Assembly: GCA_033764015.1 (NCBI GenBank) | Contig: JANRJK010000019.1 | Coordinates: 4,872 to 68,871 of the forward strand | Source of the DNA: Candidatus Sumerlaeia bacterium | Lineage (GTDB): Bacteria > Sumerlaeota > Sumerlaeia > SLMS01 > JANRJK01 | DNA length: 64,000 nucleotides | Direction of reading: 5' to 3' | In this document: positions 855 through 61,728 of the stretch, in pieces | How positions within the stretch are numbered: position 1 is the stretch's first letter | Layout of the letters: each line of letters opens with the position of its first letter | The notes under the pieces: generated by a model | The model's input: the letters and a program-made list of their open reading frames with translations, nothing else | Database searches by the model: none | What the model was told of the DNA's origin: nothing | Made by a program: the position numbers and the translations under genes

Positions 855-2615
855 ATGGCCTCCCCCCCCCGAACGTGGGCGCTCCTCATTCTGGTGCTTC
901 TCCTCCTGGGCGGAGGCGCGGCGCTCTTCTTCGTCGGATTCCGTTCCATTCCACCCGACGAAAGCCGTGCGGATGCCGTGGAGACCCCCTCCCCCACACC
1001 CCCCCCGCCGAGCGGCCCGCGCACCTACTTCGACGACTATCCCCCCGATCCGCTCGGCGTTGCCTCCACGCGCCTGCGCGGCACGGTGCTCGTCCTGCCG
1101 GCCGCCGCCCCCGCCGGCGCCTATGCCACCGCCGCGGCGGTCCGCGACGCCCTCCTCGACCATCTCAACGCGCGGAGCAGCGGTTCGGTCCGCTTCGCCG
1201 ACTACGAAACGCTCCATGGCCTCGTCGATTGGGACGATGCGCGCCCGACAGGCGAGGCGCCCTCGCCCAATGATGCCGACTTCGCCATGCGGTACATCCG
1301 CGCGGACCTTTCGGTGCTGGTGGAGGCGACCGGCGATCCGGCCACACTCCGCCTCCTGCTCCGCAGCCCGGACGGCTCCGAGTCGGCATCGACGGTGGCG
1401 TTCTCCGCGGAGCAGCCACTCGCCGCAGTAAGTGAGCTTGCGGGCGCCATCGCGGACGAACTCCCCGCCGACCTCCCGGCGGAGGAGCGCGCCGCGTACG
1501 GCGTTCCGCCCTACGCGGGGCTTTTCCAGACCTTCGACGAAGTGGCCGAGGCGCGGGCGTCCGACCGCGCCGCCGCGGAGGAACTCCTCGCGAAGGCTCC
1601 CGGCGACGTCGAGGTCCGCGCGCTGGTCGCGCCCGCGCTTCTCGCCGCGGACGCGGAGCGCGCCGCGGAGCTGCTCGTCACCGGCCCCGCCGGATTCGCC
1701 GCCGGACCAGCCGAACACCTCCTCCGCGTCGCGGTCTGGCGAGGGAACGGCGCGCGCCGCGCCGCGCGCTTCGAACTCCTTATCGGGCACAACCGCTTTC
1801 CCGGCGGATTCCCCACGCTCGCGGAGGTCTCCAACGCGTTCGGCCCCCGCGATCTCCCAGAGGCCATCTACAACATCCTCCACTATTGGCACGGCAGGGC
1901 CCCGCAAACCGGTCCCGAGCTTTCCCTTTCCGCCGCGCTCGCGACACGGGTGTGCGAGGGTTTCGTGGTCGAGCGCCCCTACGCGGAACTAGATGCAGAG
2001 ACCCTGGACACGATAAGCTACTTCCGCGAAGCCACTGAGTTGAGGATCGCTTCGCTGCGCGAGGCGGTGGGGTCGCGCCCCGAGCAAGTCGCTCTCGAGA
2101 TTTCGAAGGCCGCCATCCAGGGCCAGCGCGACGACGTGCACCTGCTCCTTCGCGAGGGCCTCGTGCTCCACCCCGCCAGCTTCGCGATCCGGGCGGCCGC
2201 CCTCAAGGCGGCGCTCCCGCGCTTCGGCGGTTCCGGGGACGAGTTCGCCGCGCTCGCCACCGAGTTCGCCGCCGAAGCCGCAAACCATCCGGAACTCCAC
2301 CTGCTCCCGTACCACGCGTTCCGCGCGGAGCGCTTCCTCGACCATCTTCGCGGCGAGGCGGAGGCGGGCGCGCTTCGCGAGGCCGCCGCCGCGGACGCCT
2401 CCGCATGGGAGCCGGCCGCGCAGGGCCTCGCCGCCTTCGTCGAGGCCGGGCCTCCCGCCCACCGCGCCGCCTACGCGCTGCGCCTGCTCGCCGCCGGCGG
2501 GGGGGCGCGCCTCGACGAGGCGCTCGCCGCGGTCCCCGCCGACCGCGCGCCGCTCGTGGCGGCGGAGCTGCGCCGCCACGGCGCCGAGGAACTGGCCGGG
2601 CGCGTGCTCCCGTAG
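855..2615 (+). CDS. hypothetical Ala-rich membrane-anchored protein
   Basis: 586-aa ORF with an N-terminal hydrophobic helix ([22 protein letters not shown]) and coding-like GC3 bias. No family recognised. The antisense ORF 618..1907 is considered spurious. Confidence 0.5.
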
Positions 2616-2692
2616 CGGGGCGGGCCCGATTGACCACGCCGCACCCGCGCGGCACCATCGATACGAACGCGCACCGCAAGGAGCACCCGCCC

Positions 2693-3928
2693 ATGTCCGA
2701 TAGCACCGCCACCCAACTGCCCCACTCGACCGCGCTCCCCGACGCGGCGGGGCGCTTCGGGGGCTTCGGCGGGCGCTACGTGCCCGAAACACTGATGCAG
2801 ACGCTGATCGAACTCGAGGCGGCGTACCGCTCCGTGGCCTTCGACGACGCGTTCCAAGCCGAACTGGCCCGCCTGCTCTCCGAGTTCGCCGGCCGCGAGA
2901 CGCCGCTCACCCGCGCGCGCCGCTACGAGCACGCCCTCGGCGGGCGCTTCCGCATCTACTTCAAGCGCGAGGACCTGCTCCACACCGGCGCCCACAAGCT
3001 GAACAACACCCTCGGCCAGGCGCTCCTCGCGCAGCGCCTCGGCAAGCGCCGCATCATCGCGGAAACCGGCGCCGGACAGCACGGCGTCGCCACCGCCACC
3101 GCCTGCGCGCTCCTCGGCCTCGAATGCACCGTCTTCATGGGCGAGGAGGACACCCGCCGCCAAGCGCTCAACGTCACCCGCATGCGCCTCATGGGCGCCA
3201 AGGTGCAGCCCGTCACCAGCGGCACCGGCACGCTGAAGGACGCCACCAACGAAGCGATGCGCGAGTGGATGTCCACCTGCGACGACACGCACTACATCAT
3301 CGGCTCCTGCGTGGGCCCGCACCCGTTCCCCATGATGGTGCGCGACTTCCAGAGCGTGATCGGCAAGGAGGCCAAGGAGCAGCTCGCGGAGCGCGAAGGC
3401 CGCCTGCCGGACCACGTCGTCGCCTGCGTCGGCGGCGGATCGAACGCCATGGGCATCTTCTTCCCGTTCTACGACGAGCCCTCCGTGCGCCTCTGGGGCG
3501 CGGAGGCCGCCGGCCACGGCGTCGCGAGCGGACTCCACGCCGCCTCCATCGCCGCCGGGCAGATCGGCGTCTTCCACGGCTCCCGCAGCTTCGTCCTCCA
3601 AACCCCCGACGGACAGATCACCCCGGCTCACTCGATCAGCGCCGGCCTCGACTACCCCGGCATCGGCCCCGAGCACGCCTTCTACGCCGATAGCGGCCGC
3701 GCCACCTACCTCCCCATCGACGACGACGAGGCGATCGCCTCGCTCCGCCGCGTGAGCGAACTCGAAGGCATCATCCCCGCCATCGAAACCGCCCACGCCA
3801 CCGCGCTGCTCGAAAAGCTCGCGCCCAGGATCGCCGACGACGCCGTGGTGCTCGTCTCCCTCTCCGGCCGCGGCGACAAGGATGTGGCCACGCTGAAGGC
3901 CCTGCTGGACGCGGAAGCGGAGAGCTAG
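2693..3928 (+). CDS. trpB: tryptophan synthase beta subunit
   Basis: MSDSTATQ...[16 protein letters not shown]...HTGAHKLNN...[10 protein letters not shown]...[11 protein letters not shown] are canonical TrpB/PLP-fold motifs. AAGGAG RBS lies 11 nt upstream of the ATG at 2693. The upstream in-frame Arg-rich extension to 2405 is judged non-coding. Confidence 0.95.
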
Positions 3929-4011
3929 TCGAGGGGGAGGCCCGCCCCGATTCCGGTTGCGAGAACGCCGTAAGCCGGGCTTCCCTCGCCGCCACGGAGG
4001 AAGCCGACGAC

Positions 4012-5280
4012 GTGTGCTTGACGAGATCGAGCAAGACGGGGAAAGCGCCGCCAACGGCCGAGGTCATCGGCGAAGAGTCGAGCGGGATGCAGACGCTTCG
4101 CGTGCCGCCCGGTGGCGGGGGCATCATCGAGTTGGATCGCATCTTTGGGCTAAAGGCGGTCGAAGCTTACGAGTACACCCCCTACGGCATTCCTACCGTT
4201 CACTACAAGGACGGGGCGATGGTTCGCACCGTCGTGTGGGACGACGACAAGGATACTGTCACCACCACTTCAAGCGTTACCAGTAATACACGTCGAGGCG
4301 AGTTTGCGGACGCGGCGTACCTGACGATGAGCGACTCTCCGTTCGGAGCGAGCTCATTTGACAAGGGGCGCGTGCGTAACTCCGCCGCGATGTCGCGGAT
4401 TGGTATCAAGCACCTCTACATGGCCCGGCCTTGGATTCCAGTTGGCGAAGTGTACCACATCCGCGCACGTTGGTACTCCCCGTTCGAGGGGCGGTTCATT
4501 ACTCTTGATCCGATTGGGTACGCAGGGGGTGCGAGTCAGTACATGTATTGCATGGGGGATTCTATTGACTTTATCGATCCGTTTGGCGAGGCCCCACTTG
4601 ACTGGGGCATTTGGTTGCAGGAGTGGTCTGAACCGCTGGAGGTGAAGGCTGCAAGATATGGTACGGGACCGATCAGCAATGTCATCGGGTTCGGTGGTTA
4701 CTACATGGCCAGTAGTGTAACTGCAGTTGGAGATATGCTGCAAGTCGGCACAGGACTGCACGCTGCTTGTAGCGGCTACGACATGAGTGGGCGGAAGCTT
4801 TCGACATTGGAGCGTTCTGAGCATCTATCCGGTGACATTTTCCGGGGTGTCGCCATCGGAGCTAGTGTGTATGGTGTCGGTAGAGGTTTCGACAGGATGG
4901 CATTTGGAAGTCGTAGGAATAGATTCTTGTACGATGGATGGGAAAAGAGTCGCGGCGAGATTTTGATCTTGGCTGAGAAGAACGGTGGACGAATGCTGGC
5001 GAATACTCCTGCCGGTCGCTTTGCTACAACTCTAGATAATGCAATGGGAAAGTCGGGGATGAGTAGCGAGCTAAGAGGGGGAGTATCGAATCGCATGTGG
5101 GATCATATGTCCCGCCACTATGCTCGGACTGCAAGGGGGAGGACATTCATCGCCCCGCTGGGAAAGAACCCTAACTCCGTGCTAAGGCGGGTTGAGATGC
5201 CTGAACTGATGAACAATAGTTGTGCTGATGTGCGTTACGTAGCGCGCGAGTACTTCGAGGCGCTTGGATGGCATCAATGA
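4012..5280 (+). CDS. orphan Rhs/YD-repeat C-terminal fragment: Rhs core end plus variable toxin domain
   Basis: YD-like repeats (YEYTPYGIPTVHYKDG) then the Rhs core signature RARWYSPFEGRFITLDPIGYAGGASQYMYCMGDSIDFIDPFGE (DPxG autoproteolysis motif at 4576-4590). A roughly 230-aa C-terminal domain of unknown family follows. GC falls from about 70% to about 50% downstream of the core. Confidence 0.75.
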   Translation: MCLTRSSKTGKAPPTAEVIGEESSGMQTLRVPPGGGGIIELDRIFGLKAVEAYEYTPYGIPTVHYKDGAMVRTVVWDDDKDTVTTTSSVTSNTRRGEFADAAYLTMSDSPFGASSFDKGRVRNSAAMSRIGIKHLYMARPWIPVGEVYHIRARWYSPFEGRFITLDPIGYAGGASQYMYCMGDSIDFIDPFGEAPLDWGIWLQEWSEPLEVKAARYGTGPISNVIGFGGYYMASSVTAVGDMLQVGTGLHAACSGYDMSGRKLSTLERSEHLSGDIFRGVAIGASVYGVGRGFDRMAFGSRRNRFLYDGWEKSRGEILILAEKNGGRMLANTPAGRFATTLDNAMGKSGMSSELRGGVSNRMWDHMSRHYARTARGRTFIAPLGKNPNSVLRRVEMPELMNNSCADVRYVAREYFEALGWHQ

Positions 5281-5302
5281 ATCGTCCCTTCGGAGGTGCA
5301 TC

Positions 5303-5701
5303 GTGAATCTGATGTCCGTTCTGAAGAGGGCTGTTTCCTTTCTGTGTGGTCGAAGTCAGACAGCATCGAGCGGTTCAAGAGGGCGCTTGAGAAGGATGGG
5401 TCCAGAGGGCGGTTACTTCGAGTTCTGGCACGAGGGAAGGATGCATTCTGTCGTCGCAGGGCTTCGCTACGACACAGACGTGGAGCAGGTTTTCTTGTAT
5501 CGGGATATCATCCTCACGGGGGCAGAGTGCCTAGACGTCGCGGAGTCGTCCGACGATTTGGTTGCGAGTCTCGAACAGAGCGCGAAGGAGTACTTTAAAC
5601 AAAGCGACGTGCGGCTTGTCGAGCACTCTGAAAGAAACCGCAATGTTCAACTTCGGGCAATGGAAGAGTTGAAGGCACTTCGTGCTCGAAAGGGTAGATG
5701 A
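5303..5701 (+). CDS. putative cognate immunity protein for the Rhs C-terminal toxin
   Basis: Low-GC ORF immediately downstream of, and overlapping, the toxin 3' end, in the frame of track ORF 5264..5701. GGAGG lies 6 nt upstream of GTG 5303 (alternative ATG at 5312). Its composition is balanced, whereas the alternative frame 5296..5598 is Arg-rich. No family recognised; the start is uncertain. Confidence 0.45.
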   Translation: MNLMSVLKRAVSFLCGRSQTASSGSRGRLRRMGPEGGYFEFWHEGRMHSVVAGLRYDTDVEQVFLYRDIILTGAECLDVAESSDDLVASLEQSAKEYFKQSDVRLVEHSERNRNVQLRAMEELKALRARKGR

Positions 5702-6057
5702 GTGATTTAGGGATGAACTGTCTGGTCACGATGCGAGACCAGCTACCTAATCCCTCACCCCATTGATGCTGACCTGCACTTGATTGCTTGACGTTGTTTG
5801 GGCGCGTTTGCGCCAGCGGCCCGTATGTCCACCCGCTAGCCCTACCGCTACCACATGCTTGTCGATCTTGAGCGCTTCGCGCGGGTCCGCCGCGAGGCGA
5901 TCCTCGAGGTCGACCGGGGGCGCGACGAAGGCCGATGTCGCGCGCCAAGTCGGCGTCGGCCGGCTGACGGAAGTCGACTACCTCCAGTTCGCGATCCCCA
6001 AGAAGCCTGTGGCCAAGGATCACCGTCCGTCGACTGCTCCAGTGGGGCATTTTCTCA

Positions 6058-6342
6058 ATACTCCACCCTCCAAGTCGGCGACTCCTCCACCCTGCTCCGC
6101 CTCCGGTCGTAGAGTCTGGTCGTGCTGACGTTTGCGTGCCCGAGCCATTCCTGCACCTTCGCGATGTCGGCTTGGTGCTCCAGGGCGTTGGTCGCGGCGG
6201 TTGCGCGGAGCGAGTGGACGCAGAGGCCGCGGATGTCGATGCCGGCACGGCGGGTGGGGTGCTGGACGATGTCGCGGAGGACGGATTCGGGGTGAGAAGA
6301 GAAGCTCTCACGCGAGGCCGCGAGGACGCGAAGTGTTGCGCT
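6058..6342 (-). pseudogene. tyrosine recombinase/phage integrase C-terminal remnant (no start codon, N-terminus missing)
   Basis: Reverse-complement frame reads ...HPESVLRDIVQHPTRRAGIDIRGLCVHSLRATAATNALEHQADIAKVQEWLGHANVSTTRLYDRRRSRVEESPTWRVEY*. HxLR and LGHxxxxTTxxY(catalytic Tyr) are integrase box II motifs. The frame opens directly after an in-frame stop, so this is a 95-aa fragment only. Confidence 0.6.
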
Positions 6343-6388
6343 TCAGGAACGCGGCAGGCCGCATGGACGCCCGCGACACTCTGCCGCG

Positions 6389-7300
6389 TTACCTGAAGAA
6401 GGCGTCCGCGCGCGAGTCGTCCGCCAGCTCGCGGACGCGGTCGCGGTCGAGGCCCGGCGAGAGGTCGCAGGCGAGGGCGATTTCGCGCTCCATGTCGAGC
6501 GCGGCGTTGCTCGCCAGCGAGTCGGTCCCGAGGTAGCAGCGCACGCCGCCCTCGAGCAGCCGCGCCAGCGGGAACGGGCCGCGCGCGAAGTAGGCGTGCG
6601 TGCCCGGGCAGACGACGGCGCTCGCGCCCGATTCGCGCATCAGGCGGATGTCCTCGTCGTCGATGTCGTTGCAGTGGGCGAGGAGCGTGCGCGGCCCGAG
6701 GGCGCCGCATTCCGCAAGCCACGGGACCGGGCGCAGGCCGGGGTGTTCCCAACCCGCGCGCAGGTGGAACTCGAGGAGGAAGTCCGCCAGCGGCCCGCGC
6801 CGGCGCAGCAGCAGTTCCGTCTCCTCCACGGTTTCCGCGGCGTGGATGCAGAGCCACTGGCCGCGGGCGCGCGCTTCGCGCACCGCCGCGCGCAGCAGCG
6901 GCGCCGTGATCGTGTACGGCGCGTGGGGCGAGAGGCCGTGGCGCGCGAGCGCGTCCTTGGCGCGGGAGAGCGCCTGCCGGTCCAGCGCGCCGCGCAGCGT
7001 CTCCTCGCCGGTGCGCGGGTTGGTGTCGATCACCTCGCGGAACAGCACGCGCCGCAGGGTGGTTGACTCAGTCAACGGTTCGTCCGCGGTGTCCATGGCG
7101 AGGATGTCGGCCACGGCGGTGGTGCCGTTCGCGGCGAGCTCCGCGAGGCCCGCGCGGGCGCTCGCGGCGCTGGCGAGCGCGGACCCGGCGCGCTTCAGCG
7201 GCAGCAGCCGCTCGAGCCACTCGGCGAAGGGGAGCCCCGGCGGGATCGCGCCCTTGAGGAACCCGAGTTCGAGGTGGCAGTGCGAGTTGAACGTGCCCAC
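6389..7300 (-). CDS. amidohydrolase-family metal-dependent hydrolase (lacks the usual N-terminal composite domain)
   Basis: The HCHLELG (HxH) metal-binding motif sits at residues 7-9 and later HxxE/D motifs are typical of the amidohydrolase superfamily. GTG start at 7300 lies 2 codons after the U32 stop and in the same frame. Confidence 0.65.
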   Translation of the reverse strand: MGTFNSHCHLELGFLKGAIPPGLPFAEWLERLLPLKRAGSALASAASARAGLAELAANGTTAVADILAMDTADEPLTESTTLRRVLFREVIDTNPRTGEETLRGALDRQALSRAKDALARHGLSPHAPYTITAPLLRAAVREARARGQWLCIHAAETVEETELLLRRRGPLADFLLEFHLRAGWEHPGLRPVPWLAECGALGPRTLLAHCNDIDDEDIRLMRESGASAVVCPGTHAYFARGPFPLARLLEGGVRCYLGTDSLASNAALDMEREIALACDLSPGLDRDRVRELADDSRADAFFR

Positions 7301-20728: not shown

Positions 20729-22108
20729 TCAGCACTCGACCACGTTGACGGCGAGGCCGCCGCGGCTCGTCTCCTTGTACTTCGTCGCCATGTCGCGCCC
20801 GGTGCGCGCCATGGTGCGGATCACCTTGTCGAGCGACACCTTGTGCTCGCCGTCGCTGAGCATCGCGAGGCGCGAGGCGTTGATCGCCTTCACGGCGCCC
20901 ATCGCGTTGCGCTCGATGCAGGGGATCTGCACGAGGCCGCCGATCGGGTCGCAGGTGAGCCCCAGGTTGTGCTCCATGCCGATCTCCGCCGCGTTCTCGA
21001 TCTGCGCGTTGGTACCTCCCAGCGCCGCGGTGAGCCCCGCCGCGGCCATGGAGCACGCCACACCCACCTCGCCCTGGCAGCCGACCTCCGCGCCGCTGAT
21101 CGAGGCGTTCACGATGTACAGGTGGCAGACCCCCGCGGCGGTCAGGATGAAGCGGAACACGCCGTCCGGCGTCGTCTTGCAGAACCGGTGGTAGTAGTGC
21201 AGCACGGAGGGGATGATGCCCGCCGCGCCGTTCGTCGGCGCCGTCACCACGCGCCCGCCCGCCGCGTTCTCCTCGTTCACCGCGAGTGCGTACAGGCTCA
21301 CCCAGTCCAGCGCCGCCATCGGGTCGCCGACGTGGCGCTCCATGTTCTCCGTCAGCGAGCGGTGCATCAGCGGAGCTCGCCGACGGACGTGCAGGCCGCC
21401 GGGCAGCTCGCCGTCGGTCCTGATGCCGCGGCGCACGCAGTCCTGGAACGCGGCCCAGAGGCGCTCGACCCCGGCGCGGACCTCCGGCTCCGGCCGCAGC
21501 ACGCACTCGTTCGCCAGCACCAGCTCCCAGATCGCGAGCCCGTCGCGCGCGCACAGGGCCAGAAGCTCCGCGCCGGTCGAGTACTCGTAGGGGAACTCGC
21601 GCAGGTCGAGCTTCTGCACGAGGATCGAGCTGTCCGGCGCGGCGTCCGCGATGAAGCCGCCGCCGACCGAATAGTAGACTTTGTCAAGCAATTCGCCGCC
21701 GGCGCCGTCGAAGGCGGTGAACTGCATCCCGTTGCTGTGGCCGGGCAGGCGCTTCCCGCGGTTGAACAGGAGGTCGTCCTTCGTCGAGAAGTCCACCTCA
21801 TGGGTACCGCCGAGGCGCAGCCGCCCCGCGCGGGCGATCTCGTCGCAGCGCGGGTTCACGGCGGTGGGTTCGACGGTCTCCGGCGAGGCGCCCTCGAGCC
21901 CCATCAGGATCGCCTTGTCGGAATGGTGGCCCTTCCCGGTGGCGCCGAGGGAGCCGTAGAGCTGGACGAGGACGCGGGCCGTCGCCTCGAGCAGGTGCTC
22001 GTCGGTGAGCTTGCGCGCGAAGCGGTCGGCGGCGCGCATCGGGCCGACGGTGTGCGAGGACGACGGGCCGATACCGATCTTGAAGACGTCGAAGACGGAC
22101 GTGGGCAT
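20729..22108 (-). CDS. sdaA: L-serine dehydratase, iron-sulfur dependent, single chain
   Basis: [24 protein letters not shown]... is the canonical SdaA N-terminus (beta domain), with the alpha-domain Cys motifs downstream. True start at 22108; the upstream extension is rejected. Confidence 0.9.
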
Positions 22109-22112
22109 AAGG

Positions 22113-22148
22113 GCGCTCCGGTGTTCAATATATTGAACAAAGGAGCGC
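22113..22148 (-). promoter_or_regulatory. 36-bp inverted repeat in the sdaA 5' UTR containing a perfect AT-rich 18-bp palindrome TGTTCAATATATTGAACA; candidate operator and/or SD-sequestering hairpin
   Basis: GCGCTCC-gg-TGTTCAATATATTGAACA-aa-GGAGCGC (22113-22148). On the mRNA the 3' arm contains the GGAG Shine-Dalgarno located 8 nt before the sdaA AUG. Confidence 0.55.
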
Positions 22149-22170
22149 GGCGACGGCAAGCGGAATCCCG

Positions 22171-22209
22171 GAAAAGGGCCGTCCCCCGGCGCGCGGCGCC
22201 GGGGGACGG
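22171..22209 (-). terminator. rho-independent terminator after rpsI
   Basis: 14-bp stem CCGTCCCCCGGCGC / GCGCCGGGGGACGG with a 3-nt loop, followed on the minus strand by CCCUUUUC. Confidence 0.7.
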
Positions 22210-22235
22210 GGAAGGCTCCGGTGGAACCGGGGCTG

Positions 22236-22637
22236 TTAGCGCTTGCTGAACTGGCTGCGCTTGCGCGCCTTGAGGAAGCCGTACTTGCGGCGTTCCTTCG
22301 CGCGCGGGTCGCGCGTGAGGAAGCCGGCCTTCTTGAGGGCGGGACGGTTCTCCGCATTCACCTTGAGCATGGCGCGGGCGATGCCGTGGCGGATCGCGCC
22401 GACCTGGCCCATGACGCCGCCGCCGTTCACGTTCACGAGGACGTCGAACTTCGTCAGGCTGTTCGTCTCGGCGAGCGGCGAGCGCATCACCGAGTCGATG
22501 CCGGTACGGCCCTCGAAGTACTTCTTCCAGTCCTTGCCGTTGATGATGAGCTTGCCCTTGCCGGGGCGGAGGTACACGCGGGCGACAGCGGTCTTGCGGC
22601 GCCCGGTGGCCAGGAATTGTTCCAGCGTGATAGCCAT
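22236..22637 (-). CDS. rpsI: 30S ribosomal protein S9
   Basis: [35 protein letters not shown]...[11 protein letters not shown], 133 aa. Confidence 0.95.
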
Positions 22638-43888: not shown

Positions 43889-44764
43889 TTGTCCTTCCTC
43901 GGCAAGCTCTTCAAGAGCACGCAAAGCGCCGTCCCGCTTGTGCCGGGATGCCTTGCGGCGCTCGCCCATGGCTTCCGCTTCGAGGTGCCCCCCGCCGAAT
44001 TCCCCGCGCGCCTCGCGGAGCTGCAGTCCCGCGGCATCGTCGCGGGCCTCTGGGCGGAGCTGAACCCGCAACTCGCGGAAGCCGCGGAGGCGCTCCTCGC
44101 GGCGCCGCCCGCCGATTCCATCGCACGCTGGCGGTCGCCGGGCGCGGCCTCCGCGCTCTTCCTCGGCGCCGAGCCCCCCGCCGGATCGCGGCGCGACCTC
44201 CAGTGGTTCAAGGCCGGCCTCCCCCTCGGCGGCCTCCGCGCCGAGCCCGCCCACCTGCTCGCGCCCGACAGCGAGCGCTCCTTCCGCTGCGACCCGGCCG
44301 CAACCCCCCGGCTCCGGTTCCGCGAGGAGTGGGAAGCGGAACTGGTGATGGCGCTCGCCCGCCCGCGGCCCCTCGCCGCGGACCGCGATCCTTGGGAGGA
44401 ACTCGGCGCCGAGCTCGACATCCCCGCCGCCGAGGTCCTTGCCGCGCTCAAGCGCCTCACGGTCGAGGGCGTGCTGCGGCGCGTGGCGCTTCGCTGGAGC
44501 CCCGCGGGCCTAGGCTGGCGCGGCTGCGGGCTCGCGGAGTGGGACTTCGAGGACGCCGCCGGGGCGGCACCGGCCGGCGACGCGCTGGCGGGCCTCCTGG
44601 GCACCGGCGATGTGGCGTGGCGCGAAGGCCCGGGCGGGAGCCCCCGCCTGACCGCGCTCTTCCTTGCTCCCGGCGAGGGCGTCGGCCGCGCGGCGGCGGA
44701 ATCCGTCGCCGCGCAATGGTCCCGGCCCCTTGCCGCGTGGACCACTCTCCCGGAACTCCGCTAA
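43889..44764 (+). CDS. hypothetical protein with two AsnC/NirD-AhbA-like repeats (tentative)
   Basis: Repeated pattern LAELQSRGIVAGLWA and AEVLAALKRLTVEGVLRRVALRW...GLAEWDF, reminiscent of siroheme-decarboxylase (NirDL/AhbAB) regulatory-fold proteins. Weak. Confidence 0.35.
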   Translation: MSFLGKLFKSTQSAVPLVPGCLAALAHGFRFEVPPAEFPARLAELQSRGIVAGLWAELNPQLAEAAEALLAAPPADSIARWRSPGAASALFLGAEPPAGSRRDLQWFKAGLPLGGLRAEPAHLLAPDSERSFRCDPAATPRLRFREEWEAELVMALARPRPLAADRDPWEELGAELDIPAAEVLAALKRLTVEGVLRRVALRWSPAGLGWRGCGLAEWDFEDAAGAAPAGDALAGLLGTGDVAWREGPGGSPRLTALFLAPGEGVGRAAAESVAAQWSRPLAAWTTLPELR

Positions 44765-47972: not shown

Positions 47973-49277
47973 TCAGCGCCCCGCGGACAGCTCCGCCAGC
48001 ACGGTCCGGTTGCTGATCCAGGGGAACTGCATCGCCTCCGCGTTCTTCGCGAAGTCGGGGTACGTCATCTCGACGAAGGCGGACAGCTCCCGCGCCATGT
48101 CCAGCGCGTCCTTCGGCGGGCAGGGGACGGTGCCGTGCGCGAGCACCAGCCGCCGCCGCGCCTCCAGCACCTGCTGGAACGACGTGTTCTCGCGGAACGC
48201 GGTTCCCAGCGGATGGCCGAGGGTCTCGAGCAGTTCGTAGGACCGGCGCAGGCCGAGCTTGATCGTCGCGTCGTCGATCCTGCGCAGCGACTCGAACATG
48301 GCGCGGCGCCGCGGCGGCACGCGCCGGATGTCCAGCCGGTCCGTCCGCAGGCCGTACTCCTTGAAGATCACCGCCTGCGCGTAGAGCTCCGCCGCGCGGT
48401 AGAGGCGGGCAAGCGCGTCGTCGAAGCGGTGCTCGCGCAGGCGGCGCACCGCGTTGTTGAAGAGGTCCACGATGAGTTCCGGCGGGAAGTCCACGCACTC
48501 GCGCCCGGTGCGCGCGATGGGGCGCAGCAGCTCGATCGCGCGCGGGCGCAGCCGCAGCCCCTTCAGCCTCCCCTTCGCGGGGATCCGCGCCTCGTGGCGC
48601 TCGTACTCCGACAGGAAGGTGTCCACCTGGAAGTTGTCCCACGCGCCGTAGGCGACGGCGAACGCCTCGACCAGTTCGCGGCGCTCGCGGGCCGGGGGCG
48701 GCAGCAGCGAGGCGTCCAGCGAATGCGCCGTCTCCGCCGCCTTGTCGAAGCGCTGCTCGAAGAAGAAGTCGGTCGCCTCGTCCAGCCGGCGCCGCGCGAC
48801 GAGCGCCGCCGGCGTGCTGGCGTGCACCGCTTCGGACGCGCCGGCGCTCCCCTTCGGCGCGGGCAGCAGGTAGCGCAGCCCCTCGATCCCCGCGCCGACC
48901 GCCGCGAGCACCGCCCCCGCGGACATCGCCTTGGTCCCCGCGGTGTAGTTCAGCACGATCCGCCGCCGGTCGAAGCCGCCGTCCAGCAGCGCCTCGATCT
49001 CCTCGCTGGCCCGCGAGTACGCCTCGTCGATCGAGTGGTGCGACTCTAGGAGCACCAGCCGGAACTTGCCCTTCGGCAGCCGGAGGCCGGCGCGCAGCCG
49101 TTCCGCGTTGTCGACCGAATCGCCGGTGGCCATCACCGACAGGTGCGCCGGGCGCAGCGGCTTCAAGTCCGCGATCAGCGCCTCGACCACGTCGCTGGGG
49201 ACGCCGGAGGGCGTGGTGCCGATGGTGACGAGGTGGGCGGTGTCGGCGTTTGTCGCGGCGGGGGGCTTGCGGGGCAT
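47973..49277 (-). CDS. CARF-HEPN protein (Csm6/Csx1-like, TIGR02710-like), standalone
   Basis: N-terminal Rossmann-like CARF core: LVTIGTTPSG (strand 1 plus Thr-rich loop), LSVMATGDS, and IVLNYTAGTKAMSAGAV, which matches the CARF [DN]x[ST]xxx[RK] / GTK motif. The C-terminal alpha-helical domain carries RRLREH (Rx4H, HEPN). Confidence 0.6.
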   Translation of the reverse strand: MPRKPPAATNADTAHLVTIGTTPSGVPSDVVEALIADLKPLRPAHLSVMATGDSVDNAERLRAGLRLPKGKFRLVLLESHHSIDEAYSRASEEIEALLDGGFDRRRIVLNYTAGTKAMSAGAVLAAVGAGIEGLRYLLPAPKGSAGASEAVHASTPAALVARRRLDEATDFFFEQRFDKAAETAHSLDASLLPPPARERRELVEAFAVAYGAWDNFQVDTFLSEYERHEARIPAKGRLKGLRLRPRAIELLRPIARTGRECVDFPPELIVDLFNNAVRRLREHRFDDALARLYRAAELYAQAVIFKEYGLRTDRLDIRRVPPRRRAMFESLRRIDDATIKLGLRRSYELLETLGHPLGTAFRENTSFQQVLEARRRLVLAHGTVPCPPKDALDMARELSAFVEMTYPDFAKNAEAMQFPWISNRTVLAELSAGR

Positions 49278-51495: not shown

Positions 51496-51623
51496 CAGGC
51501 GCTCCGGCGCGGTTCCCCGTCGCGATCCTCCAAGCGGAAAGGCTTGACAGCACCTTGGCCGCCGAGGCTCACTTCCACGCTTGTGTTATGGCGGTATTCG
51601 CCGCCCACCCGCAGGAGTCCTGA

Positions 51624-52001
<378 letters not shown>

Positions 52002-52090
52002 CCTCAGACCCCAGACTTCATACGCTCCGAAAGGTTTCCACGGTGCCCAAGCGCAAGAAAAAGGACCAGCGGTCACGCAGCCAACGCAAG

Positions 52091-52564
52091 ATGTCGCGCC
52101 GCCGCATACCCCCCGGCCGCGGCCTAGTACCCGATCTCCGCTACGGCAGCACGCTCGTCAGCAAATTCATCAACGCCATCATGGTCGACGGCAAGAAGTC
52201 CGTCGCCCAGTCGATCTTCTACGGCGCCATGGACATCATCAAGGCCAAGATGCCCGAGCAGGAGCCCGTCGAGGTCTTCAACAAGGCGATCGACAACATC
52301 AAGCCGATCGTCGAAGTGAAGAGCCGCCGCGTCGGTGGCGCCAACTACCAGGTCCCCATCGAAGTCAAGACGCACCGCCAGCAGGCCCTCGCCTTCCGCT
52401 GGCTCGTCAACTACACCCGCGCACGCGGCGAACGCGGCACCGCCGCCAAGCTCGCGAACGAGGTCATGGACGCCTTCAACGGCACCGGTGGCGCCTTCAA
52501 GAAGAAGGAAGACACCCACCGCATGGCCGAAGCCAACAAGGCCTTCGCCCACTACCGCTGGTAA
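52091..52564 (+). CDS. rpsG: 30S ribosomal protein S7
   Basis: [37 protein letters not shown]...[19 protein letters not shown] at 52043 with a Lys-rich extension is an alternative start. Confidence 0.9.
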
Positions 52565-52675
52565 CCCGGCCGCGCGTCCGCGCGCGAGCAGTCGACCCCG
52601 AACAACAAGCGCGCCCCGCCGGACCATCCGGCGGGGCGGTTTCGTTTCGCTTCGAGACCAAGAGCTGCGCCCCGG

Positions 52676-53698
52676 CTACCGACCGGGTGCGAAGTCCAAG
52701 GTCGCCTCGTTGAAGACGAGCCGCCTTCCGGTCTTCGAGTTCGGATCCTCGAAAATCGGGATCGGCGCCGCCCCCGAATCTCCCGACCGGTAGAACAAGG
52801 AACGCTCCGCCAATCCCGCCGGCGAGACAATGTCCCGAGCAGGATCAACAGGGCGAACCTCCTCCAGCGTATACGTACTCCGGCTCTTCGCGACCGCCTC
52901 GTACTCCCCCAACAGGGCGCGCAGCTCCGCGGCGGATGTTGCGCTCCGGAGGTCGGTGCGGATCCCGTAAGAAGTCTCCGTCACCTGATGACCGGGCTCG
53001 TTCGGACGGCCTCCGGATGTTTGCATCGAAATCGACGGGAGAAAGGTCACCTCGGAGCCGCTGCCCCAAACCACGGCGGTCCCTGCCGCACTCCTCGTGA
53101 CGCTTCCATTGGAAGCGTCGATGAAGTCGAAGAAACCGCTGTAGGTGGTGAAGCCCTCTTGCGTTGCGACTGGTTCCTTCCCCGACACCCAGAGCACGCC
53201 CGGCTCGGGGGCCGATATCAGGTACGGACGCGAGGACCTCGAAACCTCTTCCACCATCAACGCCCGGCTGGACACGGAATCCGGGCCAACGATCATGTCT
53301 CCGACTACACTGAAGGGGGGAACGAACGTGGCAACGCTTGAGGCACTCGGGAACGCCGTGTAGGCTCCCCCCATCCATTCCACGGTCAGGACGCCATCCC
53401 AGAACATCAAGAACTGTGGCGAGGCCGCAAGCGTCGGGTCGGTCGTCTCCATATGCTGGAACACGACTGATCGATCCGTAGCAATCGCCTTGAAGTCAAA
53501 AGACTTGGACTCCGACGGCGCCTTCCCGCCGCCTGCCTGTTCGGAGCGAAGCGAGTAACGGAACACGGTACCGGACTCCAACGGCGCGATGGCCGAGTAC
53601 AGCTCTAGCGCTTCGCTCGGGGTTGATTCGACGACCTTCATGTTGATCGGCGCCTCGACCGATGCGCCGAGGCTGAGAACTAGGAATGCGAGGACCAT
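52676..53698 (-). CDS. secreted hypothetical protein (lower-GC gene)
   Basis: Signal peptide MVLAFLVLSLGASVEA. 340 aa, GC about 58%. No family recognised. Confidence 0.5.
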   Translation of the reverse strand: MVLAFLVLSLGASVEAPINMKVVESTPSEALELYSAIAPLESGTVFRYSLRSEQAGGGKAPSESKSFDFKAIATDRSVVFQHMETTDPTLAASPQFLMFWDGVLTVEWMGGAYTAFPSASSVATFVPPFSVVGDMIVGPDSVSSRALMVEEVSRSSRPYLISAPEPGVLWVSGKEPVATQEGFTTYSGFFDFIDASNGSVTRSAAGTAVVWGSGSEVTFLPSISMQTSGGRPNEPGHQVTETSYGIRTDLRSATSAAELRALLGEYEAVAKSRSTYTLEEVRPVDPARDIVSPAGLAERSLFYRSGDSGAAPIPIFEDPNSKTGRRLVFNEATLDFAPGR

Positions 53699-53716
53699 CT
53701 GGTGTCTCCTTTCGGG

Positions 53717-54160
53717 TCAACCTGCGGGGAAGCTCAGGCTCGGATGATTGCAGCCGATCGTGCTGTAGAAGACCGTCGCAAGACCGAGTCGACAGGAGTA
53801 ACTGCCGGTTCGGCGGTTATAGATCGTGGTCCACGGTCTCCTCGTAACGCAGGGGATCGTTCCGGCGTTGCACTCCTTGTTAATGGCGGCCGCGCAGGAA
53901 GCGAAGTTCGGAGTTGGGTCGTACTGGTAAGCGTCGATGGTATCCGCGCAGGATTGCCAACCGTTCGGCAAGATTCCACAGTACCCCGCGCCTGGTTCAA
54001 GGCAGATATCGTAATCGTCGTCGGGTGGGACCACACACGGATTGGCCGTCAACACGCATTCGGCTCCCGGCCAAACCTCCGCGTGGACTTTCGCCAAAGT
54101 TAAGGGGATCGCCGACAGCACAGCAAGCGCTGAGAGTAGCCCGGTGATGGATCTCCTCAT
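53717..54160 (-). CDS. small secreted Cys-rich hypothetical protein
   Basis: Start at MRRSITGLLSALAVLSAIPLTLAKVHA (signal peptide). The mature part has about 12 Cys. The TTG-initiated extension to 54238 is rejected. Confidence 0.45.
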   Translation of the reverse strand: MRRSITGLLSALAVLSAIPLTLAKVHAEVWPGAECVLTANPCVVPPDDDYDICLEPGAGYCGILPNGWQSCADTIDAYQYDPTPNFASCAAAINKECNAGTIPCVTRRPWTTIYNRRTGSYSCRLGLATVFYSTIGCNHPSLSFPAG

Positions 54161-54332
54161 CTCTATCTCCCTAAAGGGTGGAAATCTCACTCGATCAAGT
54201 CGAGATAGGGGGTCGCTACCCCCCCCCTCATCCGTCAACAGAAAACTTCAAGCGGTCAAGGCGCGATACCTTGCGCCGATTCCGGCGCGGCGCGCCTCCG
54301 CCCCGCCGGCGATCCCGGCTAAATCCCACCGC

Positions 54333-54383
54333 CCACTCCAAAAGCCGGCGCGCCGGGAGGCTTTCGGCCCCCCGGCGCGCGGC
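54333..54383 (-). terminator. rho-independent terminator after rplL
   Basis: Stem GCCGGCGCGCCGGG / CCCGGCGCGCGGC with a 12-nt loop and one bulge, followed on the minus strand by UUUUGG. Confidence 0.6.
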
Positions 54384-54433
54384 TGTTGTCCGCGTCCCGA
54401 TCCGGAACGCAAGACCTTGTGGAAGCGGCCTGC

Positions 54434-54811
54434 TTACTCGATGACGACGACGGCGCCGACGGCCTCGAGCTGCTTCTTGACCTTCTCCGCGTCGGCCTTC
54501 GGGACGTCCTTGACGACTTCCTTCGGGGCGCCTTCGACGAGATCCTTGGCCTCCTTGAGGCCGAGGTTCGTGATCGCGCGGACTTCCTTGATGACCTTGA
54601 TCTTCTCGGCACCGCCGTCCTTGAGGATGACCGTGAACTCGGTCTTCTCCTCAACGGGGGCCGCCGCCGCGGCCGGAGCCGCGCCGCCCGCTACCGCCAC
54701 CGGGGCGGCGGAGACGCCGAACGTCTCCTCCATCAGCTTCACAAGCTCCACCACTTCCATGAGCGGCTTCGCCTTGATCGCCTCGACGATTTCCTGGTTC
54801 GAGAGAGCCAT
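54434..54811 (-). CDS. rplL: 50S ribosomal protein L7/L12
   Basis: [35 protein letters not shown]...Ala/Pro hinge...[25 protein letters not shown]. Confidence 0.95.
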
Positions 54812-58133: not shown

Positions 58134-58339
58134 TACCGCCGAGCCGAGCGGTAACCGCCCGGCAAGCGCGGCAGTGAGCCCCACCCCCACGCCCCCGCGC
58201 AAGCCTTTTTTGCGCAACCACGACACCGGCGCGCGCCGTTCTCCACCCGCAAGGAAACTATCCGGCGTCCAACGAATGTTTGGCTAGCCAATAATCCGCT
58301 TGCAACCCCAGCCGCCGCAGCCCCTAGAGTCCCCACATC

Positions 58340-61487: not shown

Positions 61488-61728
61488 GGAGAAGTCGGCG
61501 CTGGTTTGTCGACACAGCCTGTCGATTCCCGCCTCCCGGGGCTATCCGATGAATACAAGCGTATATTTCAGAGTACTCTATACTAAATAGACTAATCACG
61601 TGGGACAAATCCGCTTTTTTCGTCCCGGAGCCCGGTCATGGTTGACGCCTGCCGGGGTAAACGGTTTCCTTACATGCTCACTACCGGCGGGGCGGCCGCC
61701 CCTCCATGCCTGCAAGGAGGCTTCCTAC

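Follow-up and report, generated by a model that had tools for sequence, protein, structure and literature searches.

The 18-bp palindrome that precedes sdaA in the window, the 64,000-nucleotide stretch of Candidatus Sumerlaeia DNA analyzed here, is in our judgment probably the DNA operator of a dimeric repressor, placed so that, in a small clade of Sumerlaeia, it would overlap the promoter of sdaA. The element itself is real and under selection, and on the alignments it is the sequence of the half-sites, not a structure, that stays conserved. A sequence-only reading of the same DNA had set two possibilities side by side, a repressor operator or an RNA switch or thermometer gating the translation of serine dehydratase. 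The operator possibility was supported by half-sites that are conserved despite a change of synteny, by an adjoining -35-like box, and by a second site at another promoter.

Both rpsI and sdaA lie on the minus strand; the earlier reading had given no strand. The features of the region are as follows.

22637..22236, minus strand: rpsI, ribosomal protein S9, upstream of sdaA (PF00380, 155 bits)
22179..22209, minus strand: terminator-like hairpin 3' of rpsI, with a perfect 14-bp GC stem and a 3-nt loop, then CCCUUUUCC
22154..22159, minus strand: TTGCCG, predicted -35-like box, 14 nt upstream of the core (TTGCCG or TTGCAA at 14-15 nt in all lineages)
22142..22148, minus strand: 5' outer arm GCGCTCC (anti-Shine-Dalgarno), found in the window genome only
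22122..22139, no strand assigned: 18-bp perfect palindrome TGTTCAATATATTGAACA, proposed operator core, each half-site TGTTCAA
22113..22119, minus strand: 3' outer arm GGAGCGC, including the Shine-Dalgarno sequence GGAG at 22119-22116, 7 nt before the ATG
22108..20729, minus strand: sdaA, single-chain iron-sulfur L-serine ammonia-lyase of 459 aa, the proposed regulated gene (TIGR00720, 667 bits)

In the mRNA sense, the leader runs GCGCTCC-tt-TGTTCAATATATTGAACA-cc-GGAGCGC-cctt-ATG. A 36-bp inverted repeat with an inner perfect palindrome of 18 bp had been claimed for this region, and both were confirmed: the repeat sits between the rpsI hairpin and the sdaA start, at 22113-22148, and its arms (22113-22130 and 22131-22148) are complementary at 16 of 18 positions and have no spacer, while the palindrome occupies 22122-22139. 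The palindrome is perfect (9+9), and its half-site centres are 11 bp apart, a spacing compatible with a dimer. The protein encoded downstream is 100% identical to the Candidatus Sumerlaeia protein MDX2176113.1. The G+C content of the window was 0.69, in agreement with the surroundings of about 70% GC described before, and the palindrome core is the sole A+T-rich segment in the 127-nt rpsI-sdaA intergenic region. The proposed rpsI terminator stood in part. The hairpin is present at 22179-22209, with stem halves at 22179-22192 and 22196-22209; however, the terminator scan made no call for it, since its U-tract, with four U residues only, is below the length criteria of the scan.

Length alone does not make the palindrome remarkable. 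The window contains three further perfect palindromes of 18-20 bp, each of them GC-rich, and palindromes of this length arose in 28 of 40 Markov simulations. Its exceptional features are A+T composition and conservation: the core is 78% A+T and is the only AT-rich palindrome in the window, and none of the sequence shuffles gave even a 3-mismatch match to the 18-mer. A search for further copies, suggested by the earlier reading, found no second site within the 64-kb window. The core is single-copy there (at up to 3 mismatches) and single-copy at each related locus, without the dispersion of REP or MITE elements.

Several other parts of the window are worth recording. An AT-rich intergenic patch at 61549-61590, upstream of a GH57-family gene (61600+), contains a 10-bp palindrome, AGAGTACTCT, and may be an operator. 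The segment at 3930-6390, which adjoins trpB (2405-3928), has a GC content of 0.57 against 0.70 around it and contains ORFs at 4012-5280 and 5264-5701 without a Pfam match; it is possibly foreign DNA. At 51624-54811, rpsL (plus strand) is not followed by rpsG/fusA, and rplJ-rplL (minus strand) is not followed by rpoBC. Between rpsL and rplJ-rplL lies a 2.4-kb stretch with a GC content of 0.63, in which the ORFs 52124-52627, 52676-53698, and 53717-54238 have no Pfam match, and which may be an inserted island or a rearrangement of the ribosomal gene region. An ORF at 47973-49277 (minus strand) encodes a Csm6-type HEPN domain (PF09670, a CRISPR ancillary nuclease family), and Tandem Repeats Finder detected no repeat array in the 64-kb window.

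Searching a collection of 5.8 billion proteins returned only three 90%-identity clusters near the window SdaA, at 69-70% identity. The motif TGTTYAA-N4-YTGAACA, ending 10-13 nt before the sdaA ATG, was present at all six SdaA-clade loci that were fetched. The earlier reading had named a unique motif, not conserved upstream of sdaA, as the outcome that would speak against its proposal, and this outcome was not observed. The six loci compared are L001, L141, and L142, in which sdaA is downstream of polA, and L002, L005, and L140, in which it is downstream of hypothetical genes. Together with the window they make up seven loci from three lineages and three gene neighbourhoods, with SdaA identities of 70-80% across the clade.

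The site reads CGTTCAATATGCTGAACA-GGAGCGAGCC-ATG in L001 and TGTTTAAGATACTGAACA-GGGGATCGTT-ATG in L002, L005, and L140, and in the relatives the Shine-Dalgarno sequence (GGAG or GGGG) comes directly after the core. The genomes L141 and L142 were reached through their PolA proteins, 89% and 85% identical to that of L001, and in both polA is followed by sdaA with the exact L001 site. The nearest match of the L001 PolA is a named Sumerlaeia PolA (61% identity), with other phyla at 54% or less. In these three genomes the sequence right after the polA stop codon could not be aligned, and conservation extends from GTTTCTCC-ATTGCCGCG to the ATG. In L002, L005, and L140, three hypothetical genes precede sdaA, and a sigma-54 two-component pair is transcribed convergently to it. 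When the half-sites were examined separately, positions 2, 3, 4, and 6 (G, T, T, and A) were invariant in all eight, position 5 was C or T, and the centre was variable. Base identity is therefore kept in the dyad without compensatory pairs, which points to a sequence-specific dimeric binder.

The SdaA proteins whose genes bear the motif form one clade, and the motif was absent at the next-nearest sdaA loci, L006 (Thermoanaerobaculia) and L007, both of which are outgroups. A metagenome scan for TGAACA located 8-16 nt upstream of an sdaA-type N-terminus, in a collection that is incomplete for the clade (L002 and L005 were not recovered), returned only distant sdaA genes (43-60% identity), none of them with the left half-site.

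A second site was found on a 22.8-kb stretch (L143) from the same JGI sample as L005. The G+C contents of the two are 0.614 and 0.613, and from the common sample and the equal GC only, they are probably from the same organism. The L143 site, TGTTTAATATTCTGAACT at 22558-22575, reads AGTTCAGAATATTAAACA in the gene sense and is located 31 nt upstream of the ATG of a citrate/2-methylcitrate synthase gene. Compared with the L005 sdaA site in reverse complement, it is identical at 15 of 18 positions, and the TGTTTAA variant half-site of the L005 lineage is found in both. In simulations of 300 sequences, a match at 15 or more of 18 positions never occurred, and matches at 14 or more were expected 0.02 times. 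With respect to the gene downstream, the L143 site is oriented opposite to the sdaA site, and its RNA gave a folding energy of 0 kcal/mol compared to -6.1 for the sdaA sense, because the inversion turns a G-U pair of the sdaA leader into a C-A mismatch. A DNA dyad is indifferent to orientation, so the inverted site speaks for a DNA-binding protein that acts in trans on more than one target. No such site was found upstream of the 74%-identical synthase in L144-L147.

Scanning a genome collection for TGTTCAANNNNTTGAACA gave at least 120 matches, with no Sumerlaeota and no sdaA locus among the matches listed. Matches in coding sequence read CTG-TTC-AAY-NNN-TTG-AAC, which encodes the LFNxLN motif of LytS-type histidine kinases (L008, L012, L013, L021, L023, L031, L048, L054, and L118); these are systematic false positives, and since so many matches were of this kind, the scan could not define a regulon. 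In an Acidobacteriaceae MAG (L065:2122-2214, CAWHXN010000017.1), the region between isocitrate lyase and a divergently transcribed IclR-family gene contains an identical TGTTCAATATATTGAACA and, about 75 nt away, a second, similar site, TGTTCAGCCTATTGAACC. The two are probably a pair of operators for IclR in Acidobacteria; their motif does not resemble the IclR box of E. coli. In L094, an extended version of the palindrome overlaps the start of a TetR gene, and the L065 and L094 sites are likely autoregulated operators. The long inverted repeat at L117:7545-7622, almost perfect over about 78 bp and with TGTTCAAAGAGTTGAACA at its centre, has no connection to sdaA and looks like the end of a mobile element or a large hairpin.

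The distance from the TTGC box to the core is 14 nt in the window and 15 nt in L002 and L005. In L001, L141, and L142, the spacer between TTGCCG and the core is also 15 nt, constant in length and variable at 5 bases. The upstream regions of housekeeping genes in the window (rplM, rpsL, tRNA/secE, and feoA) contain GCTTGAC or GCTTGC boxes followed 16-19 nt on by GC-rich -10-like hexamers, the -10 regions being TACCCT, CTCACT, and TAGAGT. From the likeness of TTGCCG (22159-22154) to these boxes and its fixed distance to the core, we infer that it may be the -35 box of sdaA. The best TANNNT match near sdaA is TATATT, 21 nt from the -35-like box, and no convincing -10 hexamer was seen there. With TTGCCG as the -35 box, the palindrome would contain both the -10 region and the transcription start; if this start is right, the 5' arms would be outside the transcript from the sdaA promoter, and the hairpin could not regulate that transcript.

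A sigma-54 promoter was considered, given GG-N10-GC (CGGGATTCCGCTTGC) and rpoN in the window, and was rejected because the -24 GG is GT in L001 and GA in L002. The N-terminal activator-interacting domain of RpoN is encoded at 2-561 of the window (minus strand), and sigma-54 is thus present in this genome. The regions upstream of rpsL (51540-51580) and tRNA/secE (58170-58210, minus strand) have in common GGCTTG(A/C)..-N18-GGCTCACT, a candidate strong-promoter consensus with a GC-rich -10.

The alternative that survives best, with a small but appreciable probability, is a cis-acting RNA element in the sdaA 5' UTR, acting by occlusion of the Shine-Dalgarno sequence or through recognition by a ligand or by an RNA-binding protein with sequence specificity. 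Folding of the leader, as the earlier reading had recommended, showed the Shine-Dalgarno sequence fully paired in the hairpin of the window genome: in the MFE structure (-21.3 kcal/mol, z = -6.6), GGAG is paired with GCGCUCC, and seven consecutive Watson-Crick pairs (six G-C and one A-U) and a 7-bp inner stem form a GC-rich helix without mismatches. Every sdaA leader can form the inner 6-bp stem, in which a single position varies, from C to U opposite G, and this position retains pairing in RNA as a G-U pair. In addition, the core always abuts the Shine-Dalgarno sequence, and the MFE structures of L002 and L005 show weak CCUCC/CCCC:GGGG pairing. Against this, the leaders of the relatives are no more stably folded than shuffled sequence (z -0.8 to +1.2), and the Shine-Dalgarno sequence of L001 is wholly unpaired. 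The RNAalifold consensus (-3.85 kcal/mol) contains the inner 6-bp stem only, without the outer helix that pairs the Shine-Dalgarno sequence, and its covariation term is 0, with no compensatory changes although the flanks are saturated with substitutions; with three independent lineages only, absent covariation has limited power. Rfam gave no match at the gathering threshold, the best relaxed hits (E-values 0.57 to 9.7) being far below the family thresholds. Furthermore, RNA of the L143 site is unable to fold, and the conserved -35-like box would put the transcription start inside the element.

The outer helix that sequesters the Shine-Dalgarno sequence is a peculiarity of the window genome and is absent in the relatives. 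The earlier proposal of an RNA switch or thermometer gained no support as a conserved mechanism, given the restriction of this helix to the window genome, a hairpin of -21.3 kcal/mol that is too stable for a thermometer, the lack of covariation, and the lack of an Rfam match. A more specific version, in which the UGUUCA...UGAACA hairpin beside the Shine-Dalgarno sequence would be a sequence-specific RNA operator for a protein or small ligand, gating translation of serine dehydratase and representing a previously undescribed class of cis-regulatory RNA, seems quite improbable to us. If it were true, the 7-bp anti-Shine-Dalgarno extension of the window would make a full on/off translational lock.

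It is also unlikely that the palindrome is a promoter element only, with the AT-rich core as the -10 and start region, a fortuitous symmetry, and no regulator dedicated to it. Such an explanation would fit a core that is the one A+T-rich segment of the intergenic region and that follows a conserved -35-like box at a distance of 14-15 nt. However, the -10 regions of the housekeeping promoters in the window are GC-rich, so an AT-rich block is not required, and the symmetric conservation of both half-sites over 18 bp exceeds the needs of a -10 hexamer. The same dyad in L143, at another distance from the ATG and in the opposite orientation, also argues against it.

That the site is a LexA (SOS) box, of a type so far undescribed and specific to Sumerlaeota, is very improbable. 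The comparison with LexA made in the sequence-only reading stands as a formal resemblance: the GTTC/GAAC letters of the half-sites and the palindromic layout are common to LexA boxes and the sdaA site, and the TGTTC/GAACA half-sites resemble the Verrucomicrobia LexA motif, which is reportedly TGTTC-N4-GAACA and serves here as a lead only. The Gram-positive LexA box is GAAC-N4-GTTC. In contrast, the sdaA site is TGTTC-N8-GAACA, with a spacing of N8 instead of N4 and an orientation inverted relative to the Gram-positive box, and the genes at which the site was found, sdaA and citrate synthase, are metabolic and not SOS genes. In L001, the site after the polA stop codon belongs to the sdaA promoter block, and no other copies are present in the window.

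That the repeat arose by chance, belongs to the repetitive extragenic palindromes or MITEs, or serves as a second rpsI terminator is scarcely credible and, given the conservation data, appears effectively refuted: perfect 18-bp palindromes are not rare in the window and the element is 3' of a terminator-like hairpin, but it is single-copy in the window and at the related loci, keeps its position relative to sdaA in different neighbourhoods, is the only AT-rich palindrome in the window, and is followed by CCCUUAUG, without a U-tract and without a call from the terminator scan. Conservation specifically beside sdaA also led us to reject a dif site, a replication origin, and a MITE.

In the operator model, a putative homodimeric helix-turn-helix factor would bind the 18-bp dyad over the sdaA core promoter. 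The bound dimer would block RNA polymerase, and L-serine dehydratase would be repressed until an effector releases the dimer. The parts of this model that we infer are the promoter elements and the transcription start, repression as the direction of control, and the factor and its effector. The operator model leaves the perfect 7-bp outer arms of the window unexplained, and by our own estimate such arms have a chance of roughly 1e-3. If these arms, which occur in the window genome only, are active, they might hide the Shine-Dalgarno sequence only on transcripts that start upstream, for example by read-through from rpsI, which is speculation.

No transcription-factor gene adjoins sdaA at any locus examined, and none is marked as its regulator within the annotated window. 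An AsnC/Lrp-like HTH protein encoded at 43889-44764 was rejected as the regulator: it is 22 kb away, and it gave only far-below-cutoff matches to the siroheme decarboxylase AhbA/AhbB. Because the same class of 18-mer is used by different regulator families (IclR and TetR), the family cannot be assigned from the motif, and an IclR-type regulator for the sdaA site would be a lead only.

If the operator model is true, this would be the first regulatory motif for the Sumerlaeota lineage, perhaps common to sdaA and the citrate/2-methylcitrate synthase gene. For Sumerlaeota, an uncultured phylum previously called BRC1, a literature search turned up neither a description of transcriptional regulation nor a matching operator, and nothing relevant on the half-site geometry or on sdaA operators. 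The candidate operator hints at dedicated control over the entry of serine-derived pyruvate into central metabolism, and the 18-mer is a concrete bait sequence for finding the regulator. A repressor operator is an ordinary type of element, here in an unusual organism, and no current concept is challenged.

Compared to known systems, the window genome resembles thermometers of the ROSE/fourU type that sequester the Shine-Dalgarno sequence in that GGAG is paired in a stable leader hairpin. It differs from them in that the pairing is not conserved and the helix is perfect and GC-rich, without melting mismatches; moreover, the hairpin probably lies outside the transcript from sdaA's own promoter. 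The TyrR box, TGTAAA-N6-TTTACA, is known from Gammaproteobacteria, where TyrR can repress by overlapping sigma-70 promoters. The TGT-N12-ACA geometry over 18 bp and targets in amino-acid metabolism are common to the TyrR box and the sdaA site, whereas the inner bases of the half-sites differ (TTCA in the sdaA site, AAA in the TyrR box). No TyrR-like gene was seen at the loci, and the sigma-54 activator beside sdaA in L002 and L005 is of the response-regulator type and convergent. To our knowledge, none of the sites of ArgR, NrdR, Rex, CRP/FNR, TnrA/GlnR, GlpR/DeoR, Fur, IHF, and PrpR matches the sdaA motif in both half-site and spacing.

The operator of Bacillus subtilis DeoR (SorC family), ATTGAA-N6-TTCAAT, is part of a composite operator bound by a tetramer (PMC11229326). 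Like the sdaA site, it contains TTGAACA and has an 18-bp palindromic unit, but its half-sites are arranged oppositely, as TTGAA...TTCAA instead of the TTCAA...TTGAA of the sdaA site. From the dyad-symmetric operators of dimeric helix-turn-helix repressors, for example of the IclR, TetR, and GntR families, which lie over the -10 region and the transcription start, the sdaA site differs in having no cognate regulator gene nearby. It resembles them in its two inverted half-sites of 6-7 bp, with centres about one helical turn (11 bp) apart and a variable AT-rich centre, and in its placement between a -35-like box and the start codon, conserved at orthologous promoters.
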